Source of the DNA: Candidatus Hermodarchaeota archaeon
GTDB lineage: Archaea; Asgardarchaeota; Hermodarchaeia; Hermodarchaeales; Hermodarchaeaceae
Direction: 5' to 3'
Length of the DNA stretch: 23,507 nucleotides
NCBI GenBank assembly: GCA_016840065.1
Contig: JAEOTB010000041.1
Location: 1 to 23,507 of the forward strand
The position numbers and the translations under genes were made by a program. Positions 1,915-6,052 of the stretch are shown here, piece after piece (the first letter of the stretch is position 1; each line of letters begins with the position of its first letter). The notes under the pieces are model-generated. The model saw only the letters and a list, made by a program, of their open reading frames with translations, searched no databases and was not told the DNA's origin.

Positions 1915-1930
1915 GAGAAGGATTTTATCA
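1915..1930 (+). promoter_or_regulatory. BRE/TATA promoter for the predicted sRNA (and possibly the downstream operon)
   Basis: Purine-rich GAGAAGGA followed by TTTTATCA (1923-1930), about 25 nt before the first base of the hairpin at 1955. Confidence 0.6.
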
Positions 1931-1954
1931 ACCAACTGGACCTACATCTTACTT

Positions 1955-2046
1955 GGCCCCGCTTCATTTTGGCTATCATTAATCCACCGAGGCCTCCGAT
2001 GCGGAGTAGCGAGGAAAGTGGGTTCAGTCGGGGCGGGGCCACAAAT
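1955..2046 (+). ncRNA. Box H/ACA pseudouridylation guide RNA (single hairpin, archaeal type)
   Basis: Lower stem GGCCCCGCT(TC) 1955-1965 pairs with (GG)GGCGGGGCC 2030-2040 and is followed directly by ACA (2041-2043). There is an internal pocket, an upper stem AATCCAC/GTGGGTT, K-turn-like CCGA (1987-1990) / GCGAGGA (2009-2015) and an apical CTCCG-atg-CGGAG hairpin. The top of the pocket is 16 nt from ACA. G-U pairs favour the + strand. Confidence 0.75.
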
Positions 2047-2081
2047 CTCCTCTCTAACGTGGTGGCTAATGGTTTTGGTCA

Positions 2082-3236
2082 ATGATGTATGTTGATGAAA
2101 TAGCAACTCCGGCACTGCTTGTTGACCGAATGAAATTACTTCAAAACATAGGCTTGATGGCTGAAAAGGCGCGACAAAACAATGTGGAGCTTCGTCCACA
2201 CATTAAGACTCACAAGTGCCTTGAAATCGGACGCCTACAGAGAGGGGAGGGTGCTAAAGGAATCACTGTATCCACTCCCGGTGAAGCGCACGCGTTCATC
2301 GATGGAGGGTTCTCTGACATCACTTTGGCTTTTCCTCCAACACCTGATAAAATCCCGGTCCTTCTCGATATCGCTGAACAAGCCTCATTGAAGATTATCG
2401 TTGACAACGCAAGTGTTGTGGCAGAGCTGGATTCAAGATGCTCAGAAGCTAAAACGGAGCTAGATGTGCTGCTCAAGGTTGATTGTGGTTATCATCGATG
2501 TGGGGTCAACCCAACCAAGAGAGTTGCGCTATCTTTAGCTCGGAAAATCAGTAAGGCACAGCATTTACATTTTCGTGGAATTCTTACTCACGCAGGTCAT
2601 GCCTATGATGCAACAACAGTAGAAGAAATCGCCAAGGTCGCCAAGGAAGAACAGGAAACAATGATCAAGTTCGCTGACTTGTTGCTTGAAAATAGTCTTA
2701 CACCAGAGGTTGTCTCTATTGGGTCAACTCCAACGTGTATGATAGCTGAGGGTTTCATGAAAGGCATCACGGAAATACGTCCAGGAAATTATGTCTTTTT
2801 TGACGCGACTCAAGTCGCCCTAGGATTATGTAGGCTAGCCGATTGTGCACTTACTGTACTTGCTAGTGTTGTTAGTGTACAGAAAAATCATGTAGTGATA
2901 GATGCGGGGGCCACCGCGTTTTCACAAGACACCGGTGCGACCCACATCATTCCAGAAAAGACCTTCGGAGTTGTTTTGGCAGACCAGAGTACCAGTTCAC
3001 CTGCCAAAGGAGTTCAGATTGTTAGTCTTTCACAAGAACACGGAAAAATACGCTTTAGTGGGAAGTCAGATTTGGAACCCTTCAAACTGGGCGACCGCCT
3101 TCGCATCATACCCAATCATTCCTGCCTCACAGCGAACTTGTTTAGCCAGTACTTCGTTGTTGAGGGAGGTCAAGCTAAAACGGTTTGGCCAATTCAGCGC
3201 CACCGCTTCTCCAATAAAATGAATAATTCCCAATAG
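2082..3236 (+). CDS. DSD1-family fold-type III PLP enzyme (D-serine dehydratase / D-threonine aldolase-like)
   Basis: RPHIKTHK (PLP lysine), GYHRCG, THAGH, IGSTPT, EIRPGNYVFFD, SQEHG and IPNHSC (metal His/Cys). Confidence 0.9.
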   Translation: MMYVDEIATPALLVDRMKLLQNIGLMAEKARQNNVELRPHIKTHKCLEIGRLQRGEGAKGITVSTPGEAHAFIDGGFSDITLAFPPTPDKIPVLLDIAEQASLKIIVDNASVVAELDSRCSEAKTELDVLLKVDCGYHRCGVNPTKRVALSLARKISKAQHLHFRGILTHAGHAYDATTVEEIAKVAKEEQETMIKFADLLLENSLTPEVVSIGSTPTCMIAEGFMKGITEIRPGNYVFFDATQVALGLCRLADCALTVLASVVSVQKNHVVIDAGATAFSQDTGATHIIPEKTFGVVLADQSTSSPAKGVQIVSLSQEHGKIRFSGKSDLEPFKLGDRLRIIPNHSCLTANLFSQYFVVEGGQAKTVWPIQRHRFSNKMNNSQ

Positions 3237-3252
3237 AACCGGGTTACTAGAA

Positions 3253-4191
3253 ATGTTGGATATTCATAGCCTTCCAAAAGCCTTTCTTGAGCGCTTTAGC
3301 TCTCTTCTAGGAGACGAGTTCGACCAGTTCATCAGTAACCTTACCCTACCATCTCAGCATTTCGTACGTGTTAACACGCTAAAAATCCCCCTGAAGGATG
3401 GGCAAGATAGCCTAGCAGAAATGAATATTGAAGCACAACCCCTCCCCTATTACCCAGCAGGACTCCGTATTAAGAAGGGACACGATCTTATTCCGAAAAG
3501 TGTTGAATACGCTCTGGGATACTACTATTTTCAAGAAGGGGCCAGCATGGTTCCACCAATATCCTTGGCTCCTGAACCTAATCATCTTGTCTTGGATATG
3601 TGCGCTGCACCAGGGTCAAAAACTACTCAGATAGCCCAGATGATGGGGAATCAAGGGGTAATAATCGCGAATGACCGTACTTACCGACGAATCACGAGTC
3701 TAGGTCATAACCTCCAGTTCTGCGGCGCTATCAACACAGTTGTTTTACATGAGGATGGGCGGCAGCTTCCACAGAGACTTTCTCTCGAGTTTGATCGAAT
3801 CCTCGTAGATGCACCCTGTTCAGCCTCTGGTCATCTAAGAGGAAAATCACCCCAATTCGAAGCGCCCAATCCCAAACGGCTTCTAGGACTTCAAGCTCTT
3901 CAGAAAGGTTTGCTAAAATCAGGTTTCCGGCTCCTAAAACCTCGGGGGCGTCTTGTCTATTCAACTTGTAGTCTACACCCAGAAGAGAATGAAGATGTTA
4001 TTCAACATCTCTTGAATCACTTTCCAGAAGCTAGATTGGTACCAAACAACATTTCTGGATTAGTAAGCCATTCAGGTCTAACCGCATGGGAAAACAATCA
4101 ATATGATGATATGATGCGGCACTGTTTACGAGTCTACCCCCACGACAACGATACCGATGGCTTCTTCATAGCCACTATTCGGAGGTCCTGA
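3253..4191 (+). CDS. RsmB/NOP2/RsmF-family RNA m5C methyltransferase
   Basis: RVNTLK, YFQEGAS, LDMCAAPGSKT, ILVDAPCSASG (motif IV Cys), VYSTCSLHPEENE (motif VI Cys) and DGFFIA. Confidence 0.95.
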   Translation: MLDIHSLPKAFLERFSSLLGDEFDQFISNLTLPSQHFVRVNTLKIPLKDGQDSLAEMNIEAQPLPYYPAGLRIKKGHDLIPKSVEYALGYYYFQEGASMVPPISLAPEPNHLVLDMCAAPGSKTTQIAQMMGNQGVIIANDRTYRRITSLGHNLQFCGAINTVVLHEDGRQLPQRLSLEFDRILVDAPCSASGHLRGKSPQFEAPNPKRLLGLQALQKGLLKSGFRLLKPRGRLVYSTCSLHPEENEDVIQHLLNHFPEARLVPNNISGLVSHSGLTAWENNQYDDMMRHCLRVYPHDNDTDGFFIATIRRS

Positions 4192-4192
4192 A

Positions 4193-4654
4193 ATGAAATC
4201 AAAACCCACAGTCTCTCTCATTATAGACGATGAGTGGGAAAAATCGGTGTGGGGGCTGCTCCACAACCAGTACGGTGTCTCTCAATTTTCTGGCTACCGC
4301 CTTCTTCGCTCAGGACGGAAGCGAATAAGGATAATCAGCGAGGCGGCATTCAAACTAATCACTCAAGTACCCTGCGCAGGACCTGCTGGCCTATATTTCG
4401 GTGAATATCGACCCCATGTGATACGCCCTTCAATGGATGGTGCTCAACTAATCGGACCCTACGCAACCAAAGGAGTAATCACAATCACAAAAGAACAAAC
4501 AAAGAATTGGCTACAAGGACAATCAATTGAAACTGCGGATGAACAGCGGGGGTATGTCATTGTTTCAGATGGCCACAGGTTCCTCGGATGCGGCAGCCTT
4601 TCCAAAGGAATCCTACTAAGTTTTGTACCAAAAGTCCGAAGACCAAATAAATAA
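4193..4654 (+). CDS. NIP7-like / RsmF C-terminal PUA-domain protein
   Basis: Starts 1 nt after the methyltransferase stop. Contains GLYFG, RPSMDGAQLIG, WLQGQSI, GYVIV...FLGCG and SFVPK, typical of the archaeal PUA partner of NOP2-type methylases. Confidence 0.75.
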   Translation: MKSKPTVSLIIDDEWEKSVWGLLHNQYGVSQFSGYRLLRSGRKRIRIISEAAFKLITQVPCAGPAGLYFGEYRPHVIRPSMDGAQLIGPYATKGVITITKEQTKNWLQGQSIETADEQRGYVIVSDGHRFLGCGSLSKGILLSFVPKVRRPNK

Positions 4655-4687
4655 TGACAACACATTACTGAAGAGGCAGTGAATCGA

Positions 4688-6052
4688 ATGACAGTAACAA
4701 TAACAGTTCATGGCGGCGCCGAAGAAATCGGGTCAAGTAAAATCCTTGTCGAAGATAAGGGTCATGATGTTAAGTTCTTTCTTGACTTTGGGAAGAACTT
4801 TGAAGCGATGCGCCAATATTACGACTTCCCTGTCCAACCAGGAAGTCTAGAGGAGCTCCTCCGCATCGAGGCTACACCAGATCTTCCTGGGCTCTATCAT
4901 CTCCCCGAGAGCAAGGAACAACCTAAAACAGATGTTGACGCAGTTCTTCTAACTCACGCCCACACAGATCACTGTGGATATATTCCATTATTAAACAGGT
5001 CTATCAAGATGTACATGGGTGAGTGTACTCGTCGAGTTTTCGAAGCTCGGATAGAGGGTAGTCGGAAGAGATTTGACACAAACATAGAGGGTCTTGAGAT
5101 AGAGACATTCAAAACGGGAAAGACATTCAAGGTAGGTGGTGTTGAGGTTCAACCAGTTCACGTGGACCACAGTATCCCTGGTGCCTATGGCTTCGTCATT
5201 CATCTCTCAGAGGGTATACTCGTTTATACTGGGGATTTCCGTAGGCACGGCACTAGACCTCAACTAACTCAAGACTTCATTGATGCAATACAGCAAGCTG
5301 GTCCTCCAGATATTGTCCTAAGTGAGGGGACAAATATCGGAAAAGCCGAACTCACCAAAGAGGCAGAAGTTCGTAGGCAGATTGAGGCGACTATTAAGAA
5401 GTGTCGTGGTCTTGCCATTGTAGACTTCTCAGAGGTCGATTTTGACCGTTTCCGCACTATGCATGGCGTTGCTAAAGCAACCAACCGAGAACTCGTCATT
5501 GAGCCCCGCCGGATGTGGATGCTTGACACGTTAAACAAGTGTAGTGAGCTTTCAACACCCAGCATCACTAAAGATACCACAATTCGGCGTTACGCCCCTG
5601 AGAAGAAACGACTCTCGTCCTATGAAAAACTCCTTAGCGAATCAAAACCTCCACTGAAGGACTATGAAGGTCGCGGTGTTAAACCCGCCGAACTCCGCGC
5701 TAATCCTCGTCGTTACCTTCTAGCCACAAGCTTTGGTAACATCTCCCTCCTCCAGCGGGTCAAACCTACTTCCGGAATTTATCTATTAAGCGCCTCAGAA
5801 CCATTCAATGAAGAAAGTGAAATCAGCTTCGATAAGCTGCTAAACTGGTTAACCCTCTCGGGTCTTGCAATGTACACGGCCCACTGTTCTGGTCACGTCG
5901 ACCCTCTGGGGCTTCGCCAGACTCTTGAGGAAATGAAGCCAAAATCCATTTATCCTATTCATACCGAGAATCCTCGGCTCTTCAAACGTTTCCTAGAACC
6001 TAGCGGTCTTAGCATAGTAATTCCTAAACAAGGCGTTCCATTCAAACTATAG
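4688..6052 (+). CDS. Metallo-beta-lactamase / beta-CASP ribonuclease (RNase J-like)
   Basis: GGAEEIG, LDFG, THAHTDH, VDHSIPGA, YTGDFR, SEGT, HCSGH and PIHTE motifs. The start is ATG 4688 or GTG 4679. Confidence 0.88.
   Translation: MTVTITVHGGAEEIGSSKILVEDKGHDVKFFLDFGKNFEAMRQYYDFPVQPGSLEELLRIEATPDLPGLYHLPESKEQPKTDVDAVLLTHAHTDHCGYIPLLNRSIKMYMGECTRRVFEARIEGSRKRFDTNIEGLEIETFKTGKTFKVGGVEVQPVHVDHSIPGAYGFVIHLSEGILVYTGDFRRHGTRPQLTQDFIDAIQQAGPPDIVLSEGTNIGKAELTKEAEVRRQIEATIKKCRGLAIVDFSEVDFDRFRTMHGVAKATNRELVIEPRRMWMLDTLNKCSELSTPSITKDTTIRRYAPEKKRLSSYEKLLSESKPPLKDYEGRGVKPAELRANPRRYLLATSFGNISLLQRVKPTSGIYLLSASEPFNEESEISFDKLLNWLTLSGLAMYTAHCSGHVDPLGLRQTLEEMKPKSIYPIHTENPRLFKRFLEPSGLSIVIPKQGVPFKL

Follow-up and report, generated by a model that had tools for sequence, protein, structure and literature searches.

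A putative single-hairpin box H/ACA guide RNA of Hermodarchaeia with a predicted target in helix 69 of the large subunit rRNA

The layout of archaeal box H/ACA guide RNAs has been described (PMC2377435, PMC7991803, PMC11077068). In Pyrococcus, only distances of 14–15 nt between the ACA box and the target U were functional and a distance of 17 nt failed; a format with UNN unpaired also works (PMC2377435). Other archaeal systems tolerate pockets that leave UVUN unpaired and distances of 17–19 nt, and "NU" formats are functional there too (PMC7075261). Stem-loop 2 of sR-h45 in H. volcanii has natural distances of 17 and 19 nt and accommodates UVUN, the most 5' unpaired U being taken, and in the same system a terminal paired U can breathe and become modified (PMC7075261). 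In S. islandicus, an atypical RNA, sR148, guides modification of 23S U2060 and U2066; U2066 is a Cbf5-dependent pseudouridine and is equivalent to yeast psi2266 (PMC11077068). This psi2266-equivalent site is modified in yeast and humans, and yeast psi2258 and psi2260 correspond to E. coli 1915 and 1917 (PMC2794176). By this alignment, the four U's of ACUAUGACUCUC are the equivalents of yeast 2258, 2260, 2264 and 2266. No reports on guide RNAs of Asgard archaea were found in the literature searched.

The window, i.e., the whole stretch of 23,507 nt that was analyzed, is contig C15 of a metagenome-assembled genome of Candidatus Hermodarchaeota that has 131 contigs and is 83.9% complete. An H/ACA-like RNA gene is located in a 254-nt gap (positions 1828–2081) that separates two divergent genes. 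The gene on the minus strand (880–1827) encodes 315 aa, with its ATG read from the sequence, and the open reading frame on the plus strand (2082–3236) has matches to the Ala_racemase_N and D-Ser dehydratase domains. Sequence comparison and structural modeling suggest, with a probability that we put at about 60%, that positions ~1951–2046 of the plus strand encode an archaeal box H/ACA guide sRNA of the classic single-hairpin type, which is specific to Hermodarchaeia and is aimed at helix 69 of the large subunit (LSU) rRNA. The RNA is unannotated, has a length of ~90 nt and is a further example of a well-known kind of RNA.

On the plus strand, positions 1955–2043 fold into a hairpin in which a pocket separates the lower from the upper stem; the apex is K-turn-like, and the hairpin is followed by an ACA box. 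The lower stem, P1, consists of a 5' strand at 1955–1965 and a 3' strand at 2031–2040, as determined by covariation and RNAalifold. In it GGCCCCGC (1955–1962) pairs with GCGGGGCC (2033–2040) in eight G-C pairs, and the stem can be extended to 11 bp by U1963-G2032, U1964-G2031 and C1965-G2030. P1 is 9–11 bp in length; the lower stem of an archaeal box H/ACA guide sRNA is expected to have at least 7 bp. The 5' pocket strand (1966–1981) is long, at 16–19 nt, and has an antisense element at 1968–1981 with the core GGCUAUC at 1971–1977. The upper stem, P2, pairs 1982–1987 with 2018–2023, again as determined by covariation and RNAalifold, and has 5–7 bp with outer limits at 1981/1983–1987 and 2018–2022/2024. 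The 3' pocket strand (2024–2030) has the antisense element RGUC(R) at 2026–2030, and the ACA box (2041–2043) is found directly after the lower stem. Sixteen nt (2025–2040) separate U2024 from the ACA. A first-pass annotation of this DNA had described a GC-rich basal stem that ends at the ACA, a pocket and an upper stem, the 16-nt spacing from the top of the pocket to the ACA, the K-turn-like elements CCGA (1987–1990) and GCGAGGA (2009–2015), the pocket strands CAGUCGG (2025–2031) and AUUA (1978–1981) and a TATA box upstream, and all of these are present. It had also called the long 5' pocket strand and an imperfect K-turn atypical, and both descriptions hold.

The fold of the single sequence is unremarkable. 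It has a delta G of -38 kcal/mol and is only modestly better than its shuffles (z = -1.74), and it is the comparative data that place the hairpin beyond chance. BLAST finds the RNA in 15 relatives that span both genera of the class, and conservation stops exactly at the ACA, which is invariant in 16/16 complete orthologues. In an alignment of 15 sequences the stem cells are paired at 99%, vs 27–42% when the partners are slid. The same 15 sequences show the covariation that was looked for in related genomes, i.e., compensatory changes on both sides of six of the ten lower-stem pairs and of one upper-stem pair, the P2 pair 1983–2022, which is present as C-G, U-G and U-A. RNAalifold independently returns identical helices. 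The open reading frames that overlap the RNA have no coding role, since species differ by indels of 1–2 nt. In the pocket, GGCUAUC (1971–1977) is invariant in 17/17 sequences, as is the GUC of the 3' pocket strand among the orthologues, with either A or G at position 2026. In the free RNA, GGCU (1971–1974) is able to pair with RGUC (2026–2029) and so close the pocket, and part of the invariance of these blocks could thus be structural; AUC (1975–1977) is without a partner inside the RNA.

With a covariance model derived from the alignment, the RNA is detected as a single copy in 17 of the 19 species genomes, from two genera, that make up the class; the other two genomes have a completeness of 80% and 86%. 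When the search was made in 150 genomes of the phylum, the RNA was not found in the 132 other genomes. A pattern scan shows that the named genomes that carry it are exclusively metagenome-assembled genomes labeled Candidatus Hermodarchaeota, Ca. Hermodarchaeum yapensis or Promethearchaeota.

The K-turn-like apex is at positions 1988–2017. In the register that puts every invariant base at a critical position, it has two candidate tandem sheared pairs (G2014-A1990 and A2015-G1989), a 3-nt loop (R2011-A2012-G2013), a C-stem with G1991-C2010 as the closing pair and C1993-G2009, and a cap hairpin of 4 bp formed by 1994–1997 with 2003–2006. Both GA dinucleotides (1989–1990 and 2014–2015) and the G1991-C2010 pair are invariant among orthologues, and variation in the apex is confined to positions 1992, 1999–2002, 2007–2008, 2011 (G/A) and 2016 (A/C/U). 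Such positions of K-turns (L1, 3b) are known to tolerate change. The register is similar to that of Kt-7 and is placed 5–6 bp above the pocket. N1992 and A2017 must bulge, which makes the K-turn irregular. The apex is a K-turn-like candidate for L7Ae binding, and is the weakest defining feature of the H/ACA assignment.

The host genome encodes Cbf5 (TruB_N), Nop10, Gar1 and two L7Ae-family proteins, all above Pfam cut-offs. The conserved covarying hairpin and invariant ACA, together with the genes for these four kinds of protein, support the assignment as an H/ACA guide RNA, and with the T-rich box discussed below they bear out the first-pass proposal of an unannotated guide with its own promoter. 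From these features we infer transcription, RNP assembly and the modification itself. In Rfam, no family matches any part of the window at gathering score and no H/ACA family matches within 1800–2120 at E ≤ 10; the only hits, to fiv_FSE and sR47, are noise. Two descriptor scans of the genome for hairpins with GA/GA that terminate in ACA or ANA return this RNA once, and the other hits are implausible. The best-looking of these, a hairpin on contig C66, is inside a long open frame and is probably coding. The RNA offers a concrete and testable H/ACA guide for Hermodarchaeia; beyond that, such an RNA is to be expected wherever an archaeon has Cbf5, Nop10, Gar1 and L7Ae.

A promoter-like element at 1915–1929 (plus strand) consists of a purine-rich stretch followed by the TATA-like box ATTTTATC (1922–1929), which is ~30 nt before the lower stem. 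A T-rich box is at an equal distance before the stem in all relatives, e.g., GAGCTTTTTTCA in genus 2 and AGGGTTTTATCA in one further genome (G002). The usual archaeal spacing from TATA box to start is ~26 nt, from which a transcription start at ~1950–1953 is predicted. Since every orthologue has the T-rich box, the RNA may well have an archaeal promoter of its own that starts transcription near 1951. Downstream of the ACA is a short pyrimidine-rich 3' tail (2044–2050, plus strand), with the pattern ACA-N-C-U-Y in relatives, which may represent a 3' end or termination region. In both genera a separate segment, AAAAAGGTTGCAGTTGT (1862–1886), is conserved further upstream than the TATA box of the RNA, and its minus strand yields the TATA-like CCTTTTTGTAA ~40 nt before the ATG at 1827; this is probably the promoter of the divergent 315-aa gene, which would make the gap a bidirectional promoter region.

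The two conserved blocks of the pocket, GGCUAUC (1971–1977) and RGUC (2026–2029), are complementary to 5'-UGACU-CUC-UUAAGGUAGCC-3' in LSU rRNA. The order is that of H/ACA guides, in that the 5' block of the target faces the 3' strand of the pocket. The target is the 3' strand of helix 69 and is seen in three relatives (G003, G007 and G012); neither LSU nor SSU rRNA is assembled in the genome of the window, whose own assembly was searched. The target can be extended to 5'-UGACU-CUC-UUAAGGUAGCC(AAA)-3', and the complementarity to helix 69 is bipartite, as expected of an H/ACA guide. The 5' pocket strand is complementary to LSU UUAAGGUAGCCAAA, the GGUAGCC(AAA) part well and UUAA less well. The 3' arm, RGUC(R) at 2026–2030, is predicted to pair with (U)GACU, leaving U2024 and C2025 unpaired, and the A/G variation at 2026 faces the target U. 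The target bases C-U-C stay unpaired (three bases instead of two, or four with the terminal U-R pair open), so that the pairing is non-canonical.

In guides of genus 2, 11–12 contiguous base pairs, one of them a G-U, join the 5' arm to the whole of UUAAGGUAGCC(A), and the 3' arm has 5 bp with UGACU. The score of these guides is 15.5–16.5 at the helix 69 site vs 8.5–9 at the next site; shuffled pocket arms have a mean of 9.9 (sd 1.8), and 16 was reached in 1/300. In a register-free scan of duplex energies, which covered partial rRNA pieces of relatives, the helix 69 site ranks first of ~7,600 rRNA positions when the mean of 15 orthologous guides is taken. It has -21.05 kcal/mol, the next site has -18.96 and the background is -7.42 ± 2.81. 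For the guide of the window the site is also first, narrowly (-19.2 vs -19.0 for the next site), with two mismatches, A1978 and U1980, in the pocket-proximal part of the 5' arm. Proximal pairs are lost in genus 1 and distal pairs are gained, with UUU (1968–1970) pairing to the AAA after GGUAGCC. Complementarity to the helix 69 segment is thus maintained in a different manner in the two genera.

Other candidate sites were rejected. A strict canonical scan, with U-N unpaired and contiguous arms, gave only non-conserved hits; one of these, LSU ACCG[UA]UAAGGUGG, works only for guides with CGGUC. At SSU 1203 and 1610, which share GGUAGCC, and at SSU GACUGAA-AC-UUAA, the arms are weaker or non-conserved, or there is no unpaired U. 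A search with a strict antisense pattern found no independent guide with equal antisense in 400 Asgard genomes, and its few hits either cannot be folded as H/ACA hairpins or are in frames where stops are scarce. When the genome was scanned for looser antisense matches (5-mers), the 480 hits were those expected by chance and carried no information. The target is most likely helix 69 of LSU rRNA, as judged by complementarity, and not the site that was proposed earlier.

The best of the alternatives accepts the H/ACA-type RNP and disputes the substrate: the RNA could be an orphan, a guide for another RNA that the assemblies lack, or a non-modifying chaperone that pairs with rRNA in the manner of snR30/U17. 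The non-canonical pairing with its 17-nt spacing and the proximal mismatches in the guide of the window are in keeping with such a role, as is the finding that the strongest pairing in genus 1 is away from the top of the pocket, as in snR30 (PMC7991803), and the scans covered only the partial rRNAs and 15 tRNAs. The first rank of helix 69 over 15 guides argues for the opposite view, as does the match of both invariant guide blocks in the correct order, and the site is a documented Cbf5 target in Sulfolobus. Sites in tRNAs, which were considered as targets, are weaker (-15.5 and -13.7 kcal/mol). A substrate other than helix 69 is therefore considered unlikely, though still worth serious thought, and guidance to helix 69 is the preferred reading.

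In the proposed mechanism for helix 69, Cbf5 would dock on the ACA box and lower stem by means of its PUA domain, L7Ae would bind the K-turn-like apex, and Nop10 and Gar1 would complete the particle. The substrate of the pocket strands would be 5'-UGACU-CUC-UUAAGGUAGCCAAA-3', which comprises the 3' strand of helix 69 and the beginning of the LSU segment after it, the 3' pocket strand pairing (2026–2030) with UGACU and the 5' pocket strand (1968–1981) with UUAAGGUAGCCAAA. Cbf5 would then receive the U of the unpaired CUC and turn it into pseudouridine. The modified position would be the equivalent of E. coli 1923, yeast psi2266, human psi3749 and S. islandicus psi2066, and the LSU rRNA of the organism itself would be expected to contain UGACUCUCUUAAGGUAGCC.

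The unpaired C-U-C places the psi2266-equivalent U one base before the helix of the 5' arm, which is the canonical position for that arm. The last pair of the 3' arm (R2026) is 15 nt from the ACA. Since one target C and two guide bases (C2025 and U2024) are unpaired, the predicted U is ~17 nt from the ACA, compared with the expected 14–16 nt. Spacing of the 17-nt type is outside the Pyrococcus range (PMC2377435) and within the functional range of the H. volcanii and M. jannaschii systems (PMC7075261). The psi2266 equivalent is proven in Sulfolobus islandicus, and the predicted site is therefore plausible and not new for archaea. That this site in the helix 69 stem is shared with yeast, humans and Sulfolobus fits a modification site older than eukaryotes. 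The RNA represents a natural atypical pocket, with a long 5' arm, 3–4 unpaired target bases and 17-nt spacing, and can be used to test rules of guide-target recognition.

The neighboring U (E. coli 1921, yeast psi2264) might be modified as well if the terminal U-R pair opens and leaves UCUC unpaired. UCUC is a UVUN motif, and the psi2264 equivalent may thus be a second substrate. A more specific proposal is that a single classic H/ACA pocket leaves UCUC unpaired and installs two stem pseudouridines of the eukaryotic type, the equivalents of psi2264 and psi2266, in an Asgard archaeon, and that in the sister genus the RNA could act only on spliced rRNA or could help to keep the exons together. 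We regard this as speculative and doubtful. The predicted pairing of the sister-genus guide runs across the junctions at which LSU introns are spliced out, those that follow GACUCU and UUAAGGU.

These introns of the sister genus interrupt the predicted target of the guide; GACUCU and CUUAAGG flank one of them, and another follows UUAAGGU. Intron-bearing LSU loci are L025 (contig C60 of G012, ~440–1165), L023 (contig C17 of G012) and L024 (contig C20 of G007). The SSU gene of G012 spans 3.6 kb and thus also carries introns. The overlap of the LSU fragments L023 and L025 has an identity of just 88–98%, and their introns differ; this divergence suggests two rRNA operons, a strain mixture or contamination.

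The gene order around the RNA is conserved: the 315-aa protein gene on the opposite strand, the RNA, a D-Ser dehydratase-like gene in some genomes only, an RsmB/F-like methyltransferase gene and a PUA open reading frame. The 315-aa protein has ~80% identity between the two genera and its gene is always divergent from the RNA. No sequence match to it was found in Pfam, NCBIfam or PDB. Its language-model features resemble Peptidase_U32 clusters (score 0.98), and its AlphaFold model has a pLDDT of 44.6, too poor for a query in a fold search. The Peptidase_U32 family includes RNA hydroxylases. In the window the methyltransferase gene (3253–4191, plus strand) is followed by a separate open reading frame of 153 aa with an RsmF-type PUA domain (4193–4654, plus strand). 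The same two-frame layout is present in relatives (L036:59–1455, minus strand; L048:1638–3067, plus strand), and hence it has the appearance of a conserved split and not of a sequencing error. After the PUA frame, positions 4679–6052 (plus strand) encode a 457-aa protein of the metallo-beta-lactamase/beta-CASP type with a weak RMMBL match. It is probably an RNA-processing nuclease, which would add to the RNA-metabolism flavor of the neighborhood.

This arrangement is the basis for another explanation, in which the RNA is the structured 5' leader of the downstream operon (D-Ser dehydratase-like where present, RsmB/F-like and PUA genes), e.g., an L7Ae-binding K-turn regulator. The RNA is always 38–45 nt upstream of the next co-directional gene, close enough for co-transcription to be possible, and no clear TATA box is seen in this gap; the RsmB/F-like and PUA genes keep their synteny with the RNA, which has a K-turn-like motif. 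A leader would need neither a covarying 10-bp stem that is followed at once by an invariant ACA nor a pocket with invariant rRNA-antisense blocks, and since it leaves both without explanation we consider a leader function improbable. The first downstream gene also varies, with the D-Ser dehydratase-like gene missing in two genomes (G006 and G004), and co-transcription with a downstream gene is compatible with processing into a guide RNA.

The first-pass annotation had placed the modification in CCGACUGUUUAAU of helix 64/65, at the first U that follows GACUG (near E. coli U1777). This motif is arithmetically complementary to CAGUCGG and AUUA, but the proposal is hardly tenable, since CCGACUGUUUAAU is found nowhere in the rRNA pieces available and is absent as rRNA from the genome's own assembly, the homologous stretch in LSU rRNA of the same genus (G003) and of the sister genus (G012) reads CCCAUCUGUUCAAUAC (in a longer reading, CCCAUCUGUUCAAUACAAAC), AUUA is replaced by AUAA or UUUA in other species of the genus, which has three, and by UUAA in genus 2, and the GG of CAGUCGG is not conserved among orthologues.

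With helix 69 as the preferred target, the Hermodarchaeia RNA can be compared with the described systems. It is similar to the classic archaeal sRNAs Pab91 and Pab160/Pf9 of Pyrococcus and sR115 and sR435 of S. islandicus in having a lower stem, a pocket, an upper stem of 5–6 bp and an ACA 3' of the lower stem. Those RNAs have a K-turn or K-loop with tandem G-A pairs (PMC2377435, PMC11077068), whereas the apex here is only K-turn-like. They are single-copy and have Cbf5, Nop10, L7Ae and Gar1 as partners (PMC2377435, PMC11077068); the Hermodarchaeia RNA is likewise single-copy and the partners are encoded in the genome. It has no detectable sequence or Rfam similarity to the classic sRNAs, its 5' pocket strand is 16–19 nt compared with 5–11 nt in the Pyrococcus descriptor, its K-turn would need two bulged bases, and it is predicted to leave 3–4 target bases unpaired and to have its U ~17 nt from the ACA.

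The RNA with the same LSU position is sR148 of S. islandicus (23S U2066, the yeast psi2266 equivalent), although its target is genetically validated and that of the Hermodarchaeia RNA is predicted; sR148 also guides a second helix 69 U (PMC11077068). The two differ in architecture. sR148 is without a lower stem or ACA and uses only a 3' guide in a 6-bp duplex, whereas the Hermodarchaeia RNA has a classic hairpin and two guide arms with a long 5' arm; no evidence of common descent was found between them. Stem-loop 2 of H. volcanii sR-h45 is also an H/ACA hairpin aimed at helix 69, as is predicted here. It leaves four target bases (UVUN) unpaired, with U's at 17 and 19 nt from the ACA, and the ACA is needed for this atypical mode (PMC7075261). 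It differs in that it targets U's of the loop (E. coli 1915 and 1917) and not of the stem, and in that the RNA it belongs to has two hairpins. In yeast, psi2266 and psi2264 of the same helix 69 stem sequence are made with snR84 and snR3 as guides, and counterparts of these RNAs serve human 3749 and 3747 (PMC2794176). All of them are eukaryotic two-hairpin H/ACA snoRNAs without a K-turn, and what they share with the Hermodarchaeia RNA is the predicted target site.
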